From a virus (taxonomy: Duplodnaviria; Caudoviricetes): a stretch of DNA of 64,000 nt. Positions within the stretch are counted from its first letter, which is position 1. Every line of letters begins with the position of its first letter. Under the pieces are notes generated by a model. It saw only the letters and a program-made list of their open reading frames with translations. It made no database searches and was not told the origin of the DNA. This document shows positions 4,335 to 64,000 of the stretch, one piece after another. Made by a program: the position numbers and the translations under genes. The stretch covers positions 1-64,000 of IMG/VR virus record IMGVR_UViG_3300028591_000169, one strand, 5' to 3'.

Positions 4335-4380
4335 TGGAGATAGTCGGATTCGAACCGGCGACCCCCTGCTTGCAAAGCAG
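4335..4380 (-). other. attP core: 3' half of tRNA-Ala(UGC), from anticodon arm to discriminator
   Basis: Minus strand reads CTGC-TTTGCAA-GCAG GGGGTC GCCGG-TTCGAAT-CCGAC TATCTCC A. No D arm or 5' acceptor strand lies upstream; the site is 150 nt from the int start. Confidence 0.85.
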
Positions 4381-4434
4381 TGGAGTTCTCCGCTTAATCA
4401 CATGACAGTCACATAAATACGAAACCGCAAAAAT

Positions 4435-24800: not shown

Positions 24801-25608
24801 GCTCCGCGGCAAGACCCTTGAACGCATCACGCGCTTCTTTTGCGCCGGTTAATTTACCAAGAACATTAACTGATGCCTTAGCCCCGACAACAGCGCCAAT
24901 AGTAAAACCGGCATTCTTGATGAGGGTATCACCAATAAAATTCGCGGTGAACATATTTTCCCACCACGGACGGTTACGCTCTTCAGACGTCTGGTTGTTC
25001 CTGAATATTTCCTCTGATTTCTCATTGATCCCCTGGAGATAAGCAGAAACAGGATTACTGACAAGCGCATTCAGGAAGTCGCGCCCGGAATGAATATTCC
25101 CGCTCGAAGACTCAACTGCGAGATTAATGATTCCAGCAGGAAGTCCAACCCAGGAATCAGCAGCAGTTGTGGCGGCGAGAATTCCCATCTTAGCAATGGA
25201 GTTTCCATATACACCAAGCGTTGACTGCTGACGAGCACGAGCATCTTCAATGTCGTTGAGTTGAGACGGGCTGGTAAACCGCCTGTCAAAACGCGATTCG
25301 CCAAAACCAACCGACGCGGCTTCAAGACCGATATCTTCAGATGGATTGGTCTCGAGATACCCCTGATACTGCGACTGCATCCGCTCGTTTCGGGAAGGCG
25401 TCCAATTAAGCATCTGATTAAGAAGCTCACCCTCCTCGTCTATTTCGCGCATTCTCTGCCTGAACCGTTTGGCGGGTTCGTCTTCATATCGCCCGAATCG
25501 CGGATCTCCGGTTTCACGAAGATCGTTAAGCCTGTTTGCAAGTCCCGGGTTCGGAGCGATAGCGGATTCAAAAGTCAATCCACGGAGTCCCTGTTCTGTA
25601 TTTGCCAT
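18859..25608 (-). CDS. Large virion cargo / polyvalent protein (2249 aa) with zincin HExxH motif and GNAT-like C-terminus
   Basis: Upstream member of the RNAP cluster; TLMHEIVHA at 19942-19956; NVDFYKAFGF near 19080-19110. Confidence 0.75.
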   Translation of the reverse strand: MANTEQGLRGLTFESAIAPNPGLANRLNDLRETGDPRFGRYEDEPAKRFRQRMREIDEEGELLNQMLNWTPSRNERMQSQYQGYLETNPSEDIGLEAASVGFGESRFDRRFTSPSQLNDIEDARARQQSTLGVYGNSIAKMGILAATTAADSWVGLPAGIINLAVESSSGNIHSGRDFLNALVSNPVSAYLQGINEKSEEIFRNNQTSEERNRPWWENMFTANFIGDTLIKNAGFTIGAVVGAKASVNVLGKLTGAKEARDAFKGLAAELGLEGKSASEVVEILAKGSTSLEKEAAVKALAESAKQLKNYELGLQIAGGLLAGTGEARIEALNGVSEFEKSLEDMYGDLDMERAKAIRRIQRTMDKNGLDINTPEGKAYYDEQKALVDENYYDLKEQIAHDKAMVANTIFALNVPLLTAGDMIQWGKAMLGGYAIDRNLVKGIKKVTENAALKGAAKTPEELIKATRYASKGTKFTDFLGKVGAGSRNVLVEMQEEMNQSFFSATAKAKAMGDTTEFMERLYDPIAVADTVSWLDAAKEGMRQSWLNKDDWVEGFAGGFMGFLGLPSISVKVNENGKRTPKLTMEGGIWSPIREQNDMYDRRNKLVENLNNKLSSPSFLNYYYGKIGNAHFDSIKESAVKQGDQNLYKKADHAQLVNDAMMFERAGRLQDFIDIIDSFSTVSDDTIEQIKKLFPASDDVQKMTTSGMRNLINKNVEKMKRQLDDYIKVADDIKTVYGNMLPDAQIAEMTWQTTHLNEIEHDLKDILAHPETSAMLSAYRTSHADQTKDLTDYDIIGSPAYFTWLKNKYKDKKDTTNKSELEVALKDAGDGIYDMKERGKYIDNISMLSNDPELIQKRMTRIRRQQEELRRISQAVKAVQTLSTTEKLSEFVNAMDELGDVPNETLADIKREADRGNKVADEYLKVRDIDKALEKHVREIAEKSGATEEDIKQALAAWKYFMHNSDTAFDLTSKHSAKDIAPGIAGEKAVALMDEAVEAAAKKLKTYGKFKQRTISKKKPGQQEEPGEGNTKFKTTGNTLTQKKFEEICNDLKKNARMGHDVLGGANILKVNLDKADVYFDGVPATGIIYLYYPGAVMQKGGREYMLPVAYDMKGNEIDPEDVAKLQNEEGLGLTEWLNGNNVPAGGWTPLNVNFPQKIAQFLPIGNKTKPSKPKPETKKKEGKDAGKKTNPHKFIAPNMDMAMLGSDGQAVAEVLKSLPEDSELHFGMENEDGPVYILAGDSNIKIGTLPEEVEGGETYSGLAELKELIKTEYLETGSKKNADGMWISEKYVNHLREKQDSGFVTTESNVPIDEIPGFDGLKEPVIMFVNDEKGGQEYYFSNNSVDISQVQFRMGASNQIKPGFAYLLVPSGKNKFIPVMLYTQNVNNDTLDLNNPEVIASGFGKRVSDAIDKIVAAVTNSNEKEKIRLFKLWAWASKTESSLNSLQNLLYFRSKGKIKTQFFIKELCAEHQGWFTNDDVVMVINTHYEDSGEDNPVMIVRGKTKPDGSEYTLREQIIDAMNDLEFETESGEIHKGPIAQISPAHFSEESDELSERIRELVDAKMLLTDVKDFDLSMPSYIMDYWSVAQKKFLRPAHPAAGSGRGTVKVTNRKTKGKGSEKIATMEIGGREIQFNLSTGEAKIGSGKWFSPITSTKSIDAEIKKLGFKDARDFVRTARAIAIIADKYGNSTTGDGRIGDRVLLKDFTKNKDEGFVITDNGGRFMTADELAKFKNELKSEKSKKTTRKKSAEAERVNEARKEIEKGQEGAKDEEPDNEDEFEQEADSNFRSRQREVEKMKKIHTVRQAIEHLKKHAPQYSEFLDKISGISFYDDVLVELADLTGAKSSRGGSTIGTNKFRFNEAQSIFTDSIVIGKDSLGYQTLMHEIVHAFTVVALRYDRNLYEDIKSEMNYLQDSIGNKRLSRVLGAYESAYAFENPFEFIAEFFSNPKLQKLAKEVKTPEEIDNKKPSVFARIVSFIANKLKSLFKKKTGSYYTDLKDKLMSVVDRQVELQETGKVTFKTGEEFEKAKRIASGASVDGVAMSTKIPTVEENYNYAYDWTLFNDGNLVPTKGRFTGPGKYLSLSQLVAANDRYSSLIGMRRFVNSNNLYEYNSGTESSLFGVRDENSGVFVVVRALPAGGSDYSALIRTASESEVPMIIGSTSDNVDFYKAFGFHPVHSGSVDGKVFMANKSFTDADLYKLGTTYRPFADVLDSNDEFTRLRREAYSDQDWNKFSEMEKYHARKCIGI

Positions 25609-48140: not shown

Positions 48141-49361
48141 TTATTCAAGTATCTTATTGAGATTCCATCCGCTAGGGACACCACTCGGTGAATCAGCTTC
48201 CCATATTTCTGAGTCCTTAGGCACGGTTATATAGCCCCAACTCGCGACGCCATATAGCCAATTCCCAGTGCTCGTAGGTGTTTTAGTTTTAACATGACAT
48301 TCAATAGAGTGAATACTAGAACATCCATAAAACATTCTTGCAGCTGAGTTATTAGAAAATGATTCAGCCAAAATCTTCGGAGCCGTATGTAGACTTGTAC
48401 ATCCTTCAAACATGCCATAATATGCTTCGTTATTGACTTGCTTGGCTTTTAATTCCTTGGGTCCCCACTTGAGATTTGTACAATTCTTAAACATTTCCTT
48501 ATAACAACCATTAAAGGCATAATCAGAGTTAAGATTAGGCACTTCCGTCAAACCAGTGCATCCCTCAAACATACCGTGATAACAATAAGAACGAGCATAC
48601 TTGGCAGGGAGCGTAGGTACATATGTAATGTGAGTGCAACCAGCAAACATTTTGGCATAAGCCATGGCATCCAAATCCTTTAACGGCAAAACAAGTCTTT
48701 TGTCATTACGAAAATATAAGTATTGTCCAACGCCATGAAATAGTTTTGCAAATGTACATGATTCGGTGCTAAAAGAGTTATGACTTACTAAAAAATCTTC
48801 GCCGCAAATAAGTGACATAATATTACCATATACATATACAGCTTTATTCGTCTTAAAATACGACGCATAATACTCGTCATCATAATCTTCTCCGTATGAT
48901 TTATTTTTTCCTCGTATATAAAGCTTTTCGCCAGTGTTAAGTGTTGCAAGCAAAGTTTCATCTTCACTAGATTTTTTTGTTGTCCAGTTTATACAATCAG
49001 TTGAGACCTCAATTGTTCTATTGACTTCATATTCATCCTCTTCATCATCTTCATATGTTTCAGCAACAAAATAAACAGGTGTCGAATCTCCGACTGCTTC
49101 AAATGTAAGATATTCTTTCTGGGCAACGGCATCTAAGATATCATCTGCCGTAAGAGATTCGGGTTTGTTCTTAATATAATCAGGCGCATTCGGGTCACTC
49201 TGTTCCCAATCGGCCTGTGGGAAATCGACAGGAGAATCGCCTCCAGAAATATTAACCCATTCCCCATTCTGGAATTTCTTTAGCTCGGTCCCATTAAGCC
49301 ACAGATCGTTCTCATTCGGAGCACCGGGGCTCTCGACTATTCGTTCAATTACTTTTTTCAT
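48141..49361 (-). CDS. Virion fibre / receptor-binding-like protein with BspA-like leucine-rich repeats
   Basis: Short fibre-type N-terminus (QADWEQSDPNAPDYIKNKP) and about six repeats of Y..MF.GCT.L...P.L. Confidence 0.65.
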   Translation of the reverse strand: MKKVIERIVESPGAPNENDLWLNGTELKKFQNGEWVNISGGDSPVDFPQADWEQSDPNAPDYIKNKPESLTADDILDAVAQKEYLTFEAVGDSTPVYFVAETYEDDEEDEYEVNRTIEVSTDCINWTTKKSSEDETLLATLNTGEKLYIRGKNKSYGEDYDDEYYASYFKTNKAVYVYGNIMSLICGEDFLVSHNSFSTESCTFAKLFHGVGQYLYFRNDKRLVLPLKDLDAMAYAKMFAGCTHITYVPTLPAKYARSYCYHGMFEGCTGLTEVPNLNSDYAFNGCYKEMFKNCTNLKWGPKELKAKQVNNEAYYGMFEGCTSLHTAPKILAESFSNNSAARMFYGCSSIHSIECHVKTKTPTSTGNWLYGVASWGYITVPKDSEIWEADSPSGVPSGWNLNKILE

Positions 49362-61542: not shown

Positions 61543-61811
61543 CGTTCGCTCTTGTTATATTCACCCTCTCGCTTATCATAGCAATCCTTCTTCGCGGATA
61601 TCGAAGATTTCATCGGAGCAGCAGAAGAAGAAATGGTAGTCGGCGCAAGGCAAAATGTTTTCAACGGGTCTAAGACAACAGCGCCATAAGAAGAAGCAGA
61701 AATAATCTTCCTTAAACTGACAACTTCATTGGAAAGCCGAATGTTATCGTCAATAAGGTCATCAATCCTCTTCTCCATTTCACTGTAGGAGTCCTCCTTC
61801 GTCGACTTCAT
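61539..61811 (-). CDS. Hypothetical protein (90 aa)
   Basis: Probable start MKSTKED; N-terminal coiled coil. Confidence 0.45.
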   Translation of the reverse strand: MKSTKEDSYSEMEKRIDDLIDDNIRLSNEVVSLRKIISASSYGAVVLDPLKTFCLAPTTISSSAAPMKSSISAKKDCYDKREGEYNKSER

Positions 61812-62184
61812 AATCTTCAACGATATATTCAATGTCACGATCCTGAATGAAAAGATAGTCGATGCCATCAATCGTTATCTTCGGAATCTCATATGCCCAC
61901 TTCAAGTCATCGGACTGAACATTCTCGGCTTCATCAATCTTACCGGGCCTATGCTGTGCGAGTGCATACCTGCTGAAGTTAATCTTAACGACATCACCTT
62001 CCTTGACATCGCGGACAGTACCGCCGACAGAATACACGACCTGATACGGGTTGAGCGCTCCGTCAAGTTTTCTCGTGTCAATGATGAGACTGCCCTCGGA
62101 AGTATACTGCTGGCCAACATACTTCCTTGCGGTGGTAATGACGCCCGTAAAAAGCGGACGAACTTTCTTAATCTTGAATGCCAT
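61780..62184 (-). CDS. GroES-like co-chaperonin
   Basis: KVRPLFTGVIT...QVVYSVGGTVRDVKEGDVV...YLFIQDRDI resembles the Cpn10 pattern. Confidence 0.7.
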   Translation of the reverse strand: MAFKIKKVRPLFTGVITTARKYVGQQYTSEGSLIIDTRKLDGALNPYQVVYSVGGTVRDVKEGDVVKINFSRYALAQHRPGKIDEAENVQSDDLKWAYEIPKITIDGIDYLFIQDRDIEYIVEDYEVDEGGLLQ

Positions 62185-62312
62185 AATTAAATTCTGTTAA
62201 AAAGTGCCGGTGCGGATAGTGTATTTTTGTATAGCTCTTACAGTATGGATCCGTTTCCCCCGCTTCGGTAATTCGCATCAGCGTTTTTCCGGCACTGTTG
62301 TTAATAAAAATA

Positions 62313-62436
62313 GGACAAGGTGGAATTTGAATCCACACGTCCTTCCGAGACTATTATTGGTCATTGAAGTCATCTCAATGTAGGGGTTACTCCTATTTAA
62401 GACCATTCTTTAGCATATCCAATCTGCCTCTTGCCC
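62313..62436 (-). ncRNA. tRNA-like RNA with expanded, branched anticodon arm (non-canonical)
   Basis: Acceptor GGGCAAG/CTTGTCC; D-like arm GCA-GATTGGATA-TGC; T arm GTGGA-TTCAAAT-TCCAC; variable hairpin GTCT/GGAC; 38-nt loop inside a TGGTC/GACCA stem. Confidence 0.6.
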
Positions 62437-62438
62437 TA

Positions 62439-62900
62439 TTACTTTTTCGGAATGACCTGTCGGGCTGATTTCTTTCCATCCTGCCCGACAAGCCAGACGC
62501 GTTCATACATTTCTTTTCCTCGTTTCTTCTTCAGTGGAGGAGGAGTCTCACCGGAGAGGATGGCAGCAGCCGTGGATTCGATGTCACTCTGTGTTCTCCT
62601 GCTCCGGTAAGAGCTCCTGGGAGCCATTTCTATTTGCTGCGACACATTGGCTCTCCACTTCAGATAGTTGCTGTAAACCGGTCCAATCCTTCCAATGAAT
62701 GGAATGTGCCTCACCTTGACATATTCTTCGAACTTGTCCTTCGAGAATATCTTCCTCGGATTATCGAAGGGAAGAGACCTCGCATCGGCAAAAACAACCT
62801 CAAAAAAGGATGCGAGGATTCTCTTCACTTCTTCCTCAGATACATCATGGCGTGAGGATATCTTCCTGTATCTCTCGTATTCCTTACGGTTCCTACCCAT
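62439..62900 (-). CDS. IHF/HU-like DNA-binding protein
   Basis: KISSRHDVSEEEVKRILASFF...HIPFIGRI is an HU-like helix pair plus beta-strand; probable start MGRNRK. Confidence 0.6.
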   Translation of the reverse strand: MGRNRKEYERYRKISSRHDVSEEEVKRILASFFEVVFADARSLPFDNPRKIFSKDKFEEYVKVRHIPFIGRIGPVYSNYLKWRANVSQQIEMAPRSSYRSRRTQSDIESTAAAILSGETPPPLKKKRGKEMYERVWLVGQDGKKSARQVIPKK

Positions 62901-63288
62901 TGTTGATGGGATTGGACTTGGACGACCAGTCAAAAACGATGCACAACATGAACCTCGGGTCTTCCGTCATGTGCGGAATATAGACGCTGTTGATATGCCC
63001 GTCGACCAGAAACTCGGAAGAACGAAGCTTTCCGAGAATCATCTGGAAATGAGCCTGCGACATACCGAGCGATTCGCGCATATCCTTTCTCGAGTTCTGG
63101 GACCAAAGCACTTCGCGAAGAACTTCTGGATCCGGAATGCTCTCCTTCAGCTTGAAATACTGGATTAGTATCCGAGCCGCAACATCCTTCTCTCGTGAAG
63201 ACAGTTTCAGCGATGGGAAGAATTCAAGAAGCGCACGAAAGAATGAGGTTTCTGTGCATTTCTGTGCTATGAAGTTATTCGGCTTCAT
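62893..63288 (-). CDS. Winged-HTH (MarR-like) protein
   Basis: LSSREKDVAARIL...RKDMRESLGMSQAHFQMILGKL. Confidence 0.6.
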   Translation of the reverse strand: MKPNNFIAQKCTETSFFRALLEFFPSLKLSSREKDVAARILIQYFKLKESIPDPEVLREVLWSQNSRKDMRESLGMSQAHFQMILGKLRSSEFLVDGHINSVYIPHMTEDPRFMLCIVFDWSSKSNPINNG

Positions 63289-63586
63289 CGGGTTTCTCCT
63301 CGGATTGCGCCTGGTTCATCGCCTTGTCAAAGGAATACAGAGCGTCTTCGATGTGCTTGCTGGTCCACTCGACGAACTTGTCGTTGTACATCTCGGGATG
63401 CTCCATCACCTTGAACAACATGCTCAAGAAGAACGAAGTGTAATCGAAATCGCGATTGTTCAGAGCTTCCATCGCCTTCTGATATTCGGCGACGAGCTTC
63501 TGATACTGGAGGTGCAGTTCGCCGAATCTCTTGGCGAGTTCATCATAGGACAATTTGGGCTGTCCGGGTTTTTTCTTTTCTTCCAT
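63275..63586 (-). CDS. Hypothetical coiled-coil protein (103 aa)
   Basis: KLSYDEL start; coupled to the next gene. Confidence 0.65.
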   Translation of the reverse strand: MEEKKKPGQPKLSYDELAKRFGELHLQYQKLVAEYQKAMEALNNRDFDYTSFFLSMLFKVMEHPEMYNDKFVEWTSKHIEDALYSFDKAMNQAQSEEKPDEAE

Positions 63587-63610
63587 AGTCTTACTCTTTA
63601 GAATGATATG

Positions 63611-64000
63611 TTATTTTCTTTTCTTAAGTCTTCGTTTCAGTTTCATGGCTCCACTTCCTCTGGAGAGGGCCCAGTCGAACCATCGTTCGAATTCTTCGTC
63701 TGGTACTGCAACATAGTCGTTGATGCCGAATACTCTGAGATAAGATATTCCCATCTTTCCAGCCAGGTGGTAAAGTACTGTTCCGTATCTTTTGAAATCG
63801 TTATATCCAATTCGTTTGGCAAAATCGAAACCGAATCCGTGAACTCTCTCTCTTCGTTGTCCGAGACGGTTGAGGCGCAGAAAGGCTTGGCGTCCGATGG
63901 AAGCGTGGTAGTCACTTCTAAATCGGCAATATGCCTCATCTGCATCCAGGCATCGAATTCGTCCATAGAAGATTTGTCCATCTCGCCTTACAATTTGTTC
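63611..64000 (-). CDS. Hypothetical protein, 5'-truncated by the window end
   Basis: A frame open from 64000 to TAA at 63611-63613 reads ...GRQAFLRLNRLG...FERWFDWALSRGSGAMKLKRRLKKRK. It looks more protein-like than the listed 63643-63981 ORF. Confidence 0.55.
   Translation of the reverse strand, partial: EQIVRRDGQIFYGRIRCLDADEAYCRFRSDYHASIGRQAFLRLNRLGQRRERVHGFGFDFAKRIGYNDFKRYGTVLYHLAGKMGISYLRVFGINDYVAVPDEEFERWFDWALSRGSGAMKLKRRLKKRK

Follow-up and report, generated by a model that had tools for sequence, protein, structure and literature searches.

The 64,000-nt window (the whole stretch of DNA analyzed here) is the start of a 79.4-kb IMG/VR virus record whose completeness is rated at 82%, and the source phage has the look of a crAss-like phage. 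Every gene in the window is coded on the minus strand. Several of the encoded proteins are 2000-3100 aa long, and genes for a dUTPase and a large terminase (PHROG 6681, E=6e-96) are also present. ORFs cover 96% of the phage genome under the standard code, and there is thus no sign of stop-codon recoding. The region is present in sheep, bovine, and other animal gut metagenome runs from 15 studies. No canonical tRNA was found in the record; its sole match to the tRNA family RF00005 lies at 4335-4402 (minus strand), scores 21 bits, which is under the cut-off, and corresponds to a tRNA-Ala-like 3' part, similar fragments of which are at 48347-48419 in G004 (IMGVR_UViG_3300037453_000171; terminase 86% identical) and at 63584-63646 in G008.

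The locus of interest lies between two small ORFs, for which Pfam and PHROGs yielded no function. The upstream ORF (62439-62933, minus strand) codes for a 164-aa protein with no family match, and the downstream ORF (61780-62184, minus strand) codes for a 134-aa protein with a weak match to a head-morphogenesis PHROG. Between them, and also on the minus strand, are a 124-nt tRNA-like RNA gene (62313-62436; GGGCAAG...CTTGTCC), a T-rich trailer (62301-62312; TATTTTTATTAA), and a further intergenic element, element B (62197-62298). An earlier reading of the letters alone (the sequence-only reading) had the coordinates of the RNA right, and the element sits on the minus strand, reading from 62436 down to 62313; in its own numbering, position i is window coordinate 62437 - i. 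Also as proposed in that reading, the TAA of the upstream ORF ends 2 nt before G1, and a T-tract (TATTTTTATT) begins directly past C124.

The outer parts of the RNA are those of a tRNA, and the acceptor stem with G3-U70, the D arm with GG, the T arm with a TTCAAAT loop, and the variable hairpin that had been described for it are all present. The acceptor stem has 7 bp, formed by GGGCAAG (62430-62436) and CTTGTCC (62313-62319), with pair G3-U70 in the window. The D arm (62412-62428) has GGCA and TGCT on either side of GATTGGATA, includes A14, GG, and A21, and has base-pair probabilities of 0.74-0.80 in ViennaRNA. The 5-bp T arm (62320-62336), GTGGA-TTCAAAT-TCCAC, includes pair A53-U61 and has pair probabilities of 0.96-0.98, and the 4-bp variable-arm hairpin (62339-62351) is GTCT-CGGAA-GGAC. 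An acceptor stem, a T arm with a TTCRANY loop, and a D loop with GG are canonical tRNA features; the departures that had been listed, namely A8, A53-U61, U73, extra linker bases, and no encoded CCA, are likewise seen.

The RNA lacks the canonical anticodon arm, with its 7-nt loop, 5-bp stem, and one-nt join to the D stem. In its place is a 48-nt domain (62358-62405) in which a 5-bp TGGTC/GACCA stem surrounds 38 nt, and this stem is set off by 6-nt linkers on each side, AAAGAA (62406-62411) and ATAATA (62352-62357). The enclosed 38 nt are, in order, TTAAA, the hairpin TAGG-AGTAACC-CCTA, a single C, and the hairpin ATTGA-GATGACT-TCAAT. The central stem and the first inner hairpin stand as first drawn, and the second is shorter than the 6 bp (CATTGA/TCAATG) claimed for it: the final G of TCAATG already serves as the first base of GACCA, which leaves this hairpin with 5 bp (ATTGA/TCAAT). 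ViennaRNA favors another central fold, a helix of positions 34-40 with 59-65 plus the first hairpin, at -32.9 kcal/mol versus -29.1 for the three-way junction (a difference of 3.8); given this energetic preference, the branched drawing is plausible, short of demonstrated.

Standard annotation overlooks the gene completely. ARAGORN at its defaults, with or without introns, reports 0 genes at the element, and a "tRNA-SeC(tca)" with a 31-nt intron is called at the 80% threshold only; since an 85% threshold with long introns allowed gives 70 "tRNAs" in the phage genome, a call at comparable laxity carries little weight. Rfam returns no match at the gathering score, nor at E<=10 for tRNA (RF00005), tmRNA, Y RNA, or a ribozyme, and matches to bxd_4 and SMAD5-AS1 at lax E values are noise. 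The window has a single site, the element itself, at which a 7-bp acceptor stem adjoins a 5-bp T stem bearing a TTCRANY loop, compared with an expectation of 0.04 per dinucleotide shuffle (such a site arose in 6 of 150 shuffles).

Searches for further copies were mostly blank. The element has no blastn match in the INPHARED phage collection, exact-pattern scans of IMG/VR (T arm or anticodon domain) gave just one other contig, and the one match in a genome-contig scan, in a coding region of an Anaerolineaceae MAG, was dismissed as chance; no donor or host copy was found in any of these three scans. Extra variants were also sought by way of a spurious antisense ORF, for which no database protein was found. 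A covariance model built from the element (R1) and run on 20 related phage records scores the element at 157 bits, its sole strong match, and otherwise gives weak matches to ordinary tRNAs, such as the tRNA-Leu(UAA) of G002 (20.6 bits).

To follow the gene across relatives, 40-odd syntenic loci were gathered with the downstream 134-aa protein as anchor, and one element-bearing contig, L021, was added from a metagenome pattern scan. Three arrangements are seen. The two genes abut in state A (L003-L005, L020, L034, L035, and L073); a 100-110-nt spacer element, element B, is present alone in state B (L010-L019, L027, L033, L071, and L072); and element B is accompanied by the tRNA-like RNA, right behind the stop codon, in state C (window, L002, L021, and L028-L032). 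The inserted module is ~138 nt long and consists of TA, the RNA, and TATTTTTATTAA, the trailer being present in every copy that has the element and missing from the others; a duplication of TAA is possible at the module junctions. L021 has the module and L027 and L033 are without it, with anchor proteins that are 98.5-99% identical, and G003, a complete relative with a 95% identical terminase, also is without it. One DNA contig (run X2) skips the entire 254-nt spacer. This patchy presence among near-identical phages points to an accessory module, which would be spread or lost by recombination between conserved flanks.

Two other features of these loci are of note. A perfect hairpin, GTCGGGC...GCCCGAC (62455-62490, minus strand), lies within the final 25 codons of the upstream ORF and is conserved at the nucleotide level among the closer relatives in states A, B, and C. 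In L020, a GIY-YIG/NUMOD homing-endonuclease-like gene (L020:2475-3179), missing from the window, is located between a 181-aa gene and the dUTPase gene.

In these related rumen phage contigs the tRNA-like RNA has four distinct sequences (window, L002, L021, and L028-L032), which differ at nine columns (own positions 3, 87, 89, 95, 97, 100, 109, 111, and 122). Positions 4-86, comprising the D arm and the entire 48-nt anticodon domain with its two flanking linkers, are invariant in 4/4 variants, although short divergence time or recombination could account in part for the invariance of the central domain. The 34 proposed pairs hold in every variant (100% of cells), and 6/6 stem changes are compensatory, over three base pairs. 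At pair 3:70 the window and L028 have G-U, L002 has G-C, and L021 has A-U; because this pair varies, the alanine identity that had been read into G3-U70 is rejected. The variable arm of L021 and L028-L032 is GCCA-CGGAA-TGGC, with two pairs altered on both sides and pairing kept (87:97 from U-A to C-G; 89:95 from U-G to A-U). The T loop is TTCGATT in L021 and L028, with changes at 57 (A to G, still a purine) and 59 only, leaving the conserved positions T54, T55, C56, and A58 unchanged. The chance that seven random substitutions preserve all pairs is P=0.016, and P=0.00018 with at least 5 of the seven in stems. The RNA is the best-conserved segment of its neighborhood in a comparison of the window with L021: it keeps 94.4% identity, compared with 85-90% in the upstream ORF, 81% in element B, and 71% in the downstream ORF.

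The compensatory changes and conservation together rule out chance and argue strongly against a decaying pseudogene, and from these alignments the RNA is judged to be a real gene maintained by selection, with the caveat that the copies compared are all closely related (94% identity or more). The sequence-only reading would have taken a lack of compensatory changes as the sign of a decayed tRNA pseudogene; with three compensatory pairs over four variants this sign is missing, and the covariation bears out its view of a genuine tRNA-shaped RNA, neither noise nor a decayed pseudogene. Nor does any relative show the same tRNA without the insert, as would be seen if an ordinary tRNA had suffered a one-off insertion. 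A related possibility is a neutral remnant, in which a tRNA gene from another phage was disabled by a small insertion and now hitch-hikes between conserved flanks. The element is dispensable, in that many close relatives are without it, it departs from tRNA rules in many ways, it has no promoter of its own, and its copies are all closely related, as such a remnant would be. However, stem substitutions that are all compensatory, T-loop changes that spare the conserved positions, conservation above that of the coding sequence on both sides, and the persistence of allele groups V1/V2 and V3/V4 in lineages whose neighboring protein is just 78% identical make this reading very unlikely.

Element B is a separate intergenic element with invariant ends, a clamp AGTGCCGG...CCGGCACT and a helix GCGG...CCGC, around a fast-changing centre, followed by TTTTT. 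It is older than the insertion of the tRNA-like RNA. Its consensus fold shows no covariation; a terminator interrupted by a large insert and an independent small RNA are both possible. Antitermination of element B by the RNA was considered and rejected, there being no complement to the AGTGCCGG clamp in the RNA.

In L021 the TAA is lost through a 1-nt deletion, and the upstream ORF enters the RNA for 19 codons (L021:9975-10060) and ends at a TAG within the RNA's loop; in L028-L032 the upstream stop is TAG, and its G is nucleotide 1 of the RNA (L028:520-560). Such an arrangement is compatible with a cis-acting 3' element of the upstream mRNA, either an RNase P/RNase Z target or a fold before a U-tract, that sets or protects the 3' end and separates two operons. 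The start 2 nt past the stop codon, the overlap by stop codon or ORF in L028 and L021, the U-tract after the RNA followed by a second clamp-plus-U-tract element, and the lack of an own promoter are all in keeping with this role. Yet some relatives do with nothing but element B and others lack a spacer, an invariant 48-nt domain and a conserved variable arm are superfluous for a processing signal, and the RNA is not called by a terminator scan, and we regard a cis-acting role as most unlikely.

With a fixed 38-nt branched insert replacing the anticodon loop, codon reading is improbable, and to judge from its structure the RNA probably does not read codons. Removal of a small intron had been thought conceivable, and an intron-bearing decoding tRNA of the Lak type, from which host or phage activity removes a 31-33-nt insert, has to be weighed as an alternative; its product would be either a UGA reader with the loop UUUCAAU or a class II tRNA-Leu(UAA) with the loop CUUAAAU, the insert in the latter case following position 38. 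Removal of 31 nt gives the loop UUUCAAU, with anticodon UCA, and removal of 33 nt gives CUUAAAU (Leu-UAA); both excisions leave loops of 7 nt that have U33 and, at position 37, a purine or A, and given loops this tidy, a cut-and-join pathway remains conceivable. The body is of class II, and the phage tRNAs nearest to it are Leu types. Against this, the Leu reading requires a shifted 4-bp stem with an A-A mismatch. The discriminator base is A73 in Leu tRNAs and G73 in Ser/Sec tRNAs, and the U73 of the RNA is unsuited to either. Descent from tRNA-Leu(UAA) is only weakly indicated by the R1 match in G002 and by alignments, in which Leu(taa/caa/tag) tRNAs lead the list for variant 4, a likeness due in part to shared class II length.

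Nor are the joined forms readily called as tRNAs. In silico deletions of 24-35 nt at every offset give no ARAGORN call at the default or at 95%; calls come only at 90%, where different cuts yield different isotypes (SeC, Phe, Leu, Ile, Cys, Lys, or Stop). No bulge-helix-bulge is present around the insert; a script finds such motifs at background level (5 versus 3.6 in shuffles), and none of them uses the anticodon stem. The splicing endonuclease (PF01974), RtcB (PF01139), and RNA ligase (PF09414) are absent from the 82%-complete record, as is a CCA-adding enzyme, and because the record is incomplete, a phage-encoded enzyme could lie in the remaining part. A self-splicing group I intron is rejected, since the insert is 31-38 nt long versus a core of ~200 nt or more, and there is no RF00028 or other Rfam match; the insert is likewise far below group II size, with no ribozyme family match.

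Codon use shows no need for a reader of Leu-UAA or UGA: TTA makes up 5.8% of Leu codons in the phage genome, and TGA is an ordinary stop in 6/41 ORFs, with no gene having an in-frame TGA. A suppressor tRNA of the kind found in recoded phages (anticodon CUA, UCA, or UUA) is rejected because UCA arises only after a hypothetical 31-nt excision and the genome reads in the standard code, and ochre suppression because the loop cannot be read so as to give both U33 and a UUA anticodon. Contigs from RNA data (X3, one sheep-gut library) cover 62251-62829 at low depth and show the unspliced form only, which counts weakly against splicing, as they extend beyond the 3' end of the RNA and could be DNA or read-through. 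Taken together, these points make an intron-bearing decoding tRNA unlikely, though it is the leading alternative.

Unusual tRNA-like genes are also seen elsewhere among these phages, as an RF00005 run over 19 related phage records indicates. In the complete genomes G001 and G002, whose anchor proteins are ~41% identical to that of the window, a 113-nt tRNA is first in a normal tRNA array (G002, L023:230-342; G001, L024:217-329). Its body scores well against RF00005 (50 bits in G002 and 45 bits in G001), and 46 nt take the place of the loop and the last stem pair, amounting to ~37 extra nt; the added part folds as a long hairpin, in which G001 and G002 differ by a compensatory A:T to G:C change. 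Its isotype is ambiguous, with Asn-GUU-like and Arg-UCU-like heptamers both present. A high-scoring tRNA body with a 37-nt insert is in line with the intron-bearing alternative.

G004 has several such genes. A 91-nt tRNA-like gene (L057:756-846) encodes its CCA and is good in the acceptor and T arm, and its anticodon arm is a ~12-bp hairpin with a GAAA cap; with this capped hairpin and no anticodon, the RNA cannot decode. In the same phage, the anticodon loop of a tRNA-Met(CAU) (L057:145-700; ~24945-25500) is split by a group-I-like intron (RF00028 at 41.5 bits, below the cut-off of 50), and an intact orthologue of this tRNA is present in G003 (L058:248-323, 58 bits). A peripheral loop of the intron hosts a 104-nt tRNA-like element (L057:264-367, RF00005 at 30.8 bits), which carries a 32-nt anticodon-loop insert of its own. 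As R1 finds no homologue in the 20 records it was run on, these odd tRNA-like genes are parallel cases and not one sequence family, and a shared rule of an insert after position 38 (window RNA, G001/G002, and G004) was rejected because the registers disagree. The complete relative G009 has a further aberrant case, a 70-nt tRNA-like gene (L061:138-207, RF00005 at 38.9 bits) whose long anticodon stem is closed by a 6-nt loop.

Among published systems, the Lak megaphages of Prevotella have "enigmatic" tRNA introns, anticodon-loop inserts whose mechanism is unexplained (Devoto et al. 2019, Nat Microbiol, PMC6784885). These inserts have the same sequence across cohorts, are polymorphic in presence, and are missed by bacterial tRNA finders (PMC6784885). 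Conserved and at the same place in the loop as the insert here, they are consistent with the intron-bearing alternative. The likeness extends to the phages, which are gut Bacteroidales phages in both cases, to a non-group-I insert behind an intact-looking 5' part of the anticodon loop, and to the fixity of the insert, which here is identical in four variants from several studies. However, the Lak tRNAs are otherwise good, one example having a 93-nt insert, whereas the insert here is 31-33 nt and the body breaks tRNA rules (6-nt linkers, A8, A53-U61, and U73) and has no defined isotype. It is also the whole gene that is polymorphic here and the insert in Lak, and the phage is crAss-like and not a megaphage. 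The introns of archaeal and eukaryal pre-tRNAs are similar as short inserts in the anticodon loop of a cloverleaf, but here there is no bulge-helix-bulge and no endonuclease in the record, and the phage type implies a bacterial host.

Other RNAs combine tRNA-like parts with different central modules. tmRNA is similar in having the acceptor and T arm of a tRNA but no normal anticodon arm; as had been noted, the RNA at 124 nt is too short to be one, and it has no pseudoknots and no tag reading frame, with nothing called by ARAGORN -m or Rfam. YrlA-type Y RNAs of bacteria and phages are tRNA mimics bound by Ro60/Rsr (Chen et al. 2014, PMC4201824). Both RNAs occur in phages and have acceptor, T, and D features plus an extra module, which in YrlA is protein docking, and there is a loose similarity of the UGGUC stem here to the GGUCCGA Ro contact site. 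The RNA differs in ending in its acceptor stem and not in a docking helix, and assignment as a Y RNA/YrlA is rejected given the lack of an Rfam match at E<=10, of a TROVE gene in the record, and of a GNCGAA motif. Phage tRNAs are also proposed to evade or absorb tRNA-targeting defenses, including host anticodon nucleases (PMC10264068; PMC11555353). Like the RNA here, these are tRNA-type genes that phages carry as accessories and whose anticodon loops are altered, but they are working tRNAs with point changes, whereas the RNA described here has a 38-nt loop and is probably non-decoding.

The structure of the RNA, the selection on it, and its patchy accessory distribution are plain from these comparisons, and the reading we favor, with moderate confidence, is an accessory tRNA-derived RNA of a rumen crAss-like phage that acts as a non-decoding tRNA mimic on a putative target. 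A non-decoding mimic or decoy was among the options raised in the sequence-only reading, and of these it agrees best with the data. The parts retained for processing or binding proteins would be the acceptor/T-arm helix, the elbow of D loop and T loop, and the long variable arm, and the anticodon arm would have been rebuilt as a fixed 48-nt domain that the 6-nt linkers hold away from the core. No promoter of its own was found for the RNA, and it is therefore likely to be transcribed together with the upstream genes. Host tRNA-processing enzymes could then excise it, with RNase P cutting at G1, followed by 3' trimming and CCA addition, and the processed RNA would resemble a tRNA but take no part in decoding. 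Its invariant central domain would provide a specific working surface, for example to bait or block a host factor involved in handling or attacking tRNAs; neither a partner protein nor a target of the RNA was found, and a role against tRNA-directed host defenses is a guess.

A broader form of this proposal is that Crassvirales and other gut Bacteroidales phages carry a class of RNAs in which the upper half of a tRNA is kept and an anticodon heptamer that looks intact (here CUUAAAU) is locked beside a fixed structured insert, making baits that are bound but not normally processed by host anticodon-targeting nucleases or tRNA-modifying enzymes. We consider this speculative and distinctly unlikely as it stands; if true, the RNA would be an RNA-based anti-defense device, and the same explanation would apply to the "enigmatic introns" of Lak phages.

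The short length of the module and the natural occurrence of near-identical phages with and without it make this locus a convenient test case. If the RNA is spliced, it would point to an unrecognized route of tRNA splicing in bacteria or their phages; if it is unspliced, it would belong to a family of tRNA mimics whose candidate targets are processing enzymes, defense nucleases, and RNA chaperones. Together with the published Lak cases, the insert-bearing genes of these crAss-like phages suggest that gut and rumen Bacteroidales phages repeatedly keep tRNA-shaped RNAs with rebuilt anticodon arms.
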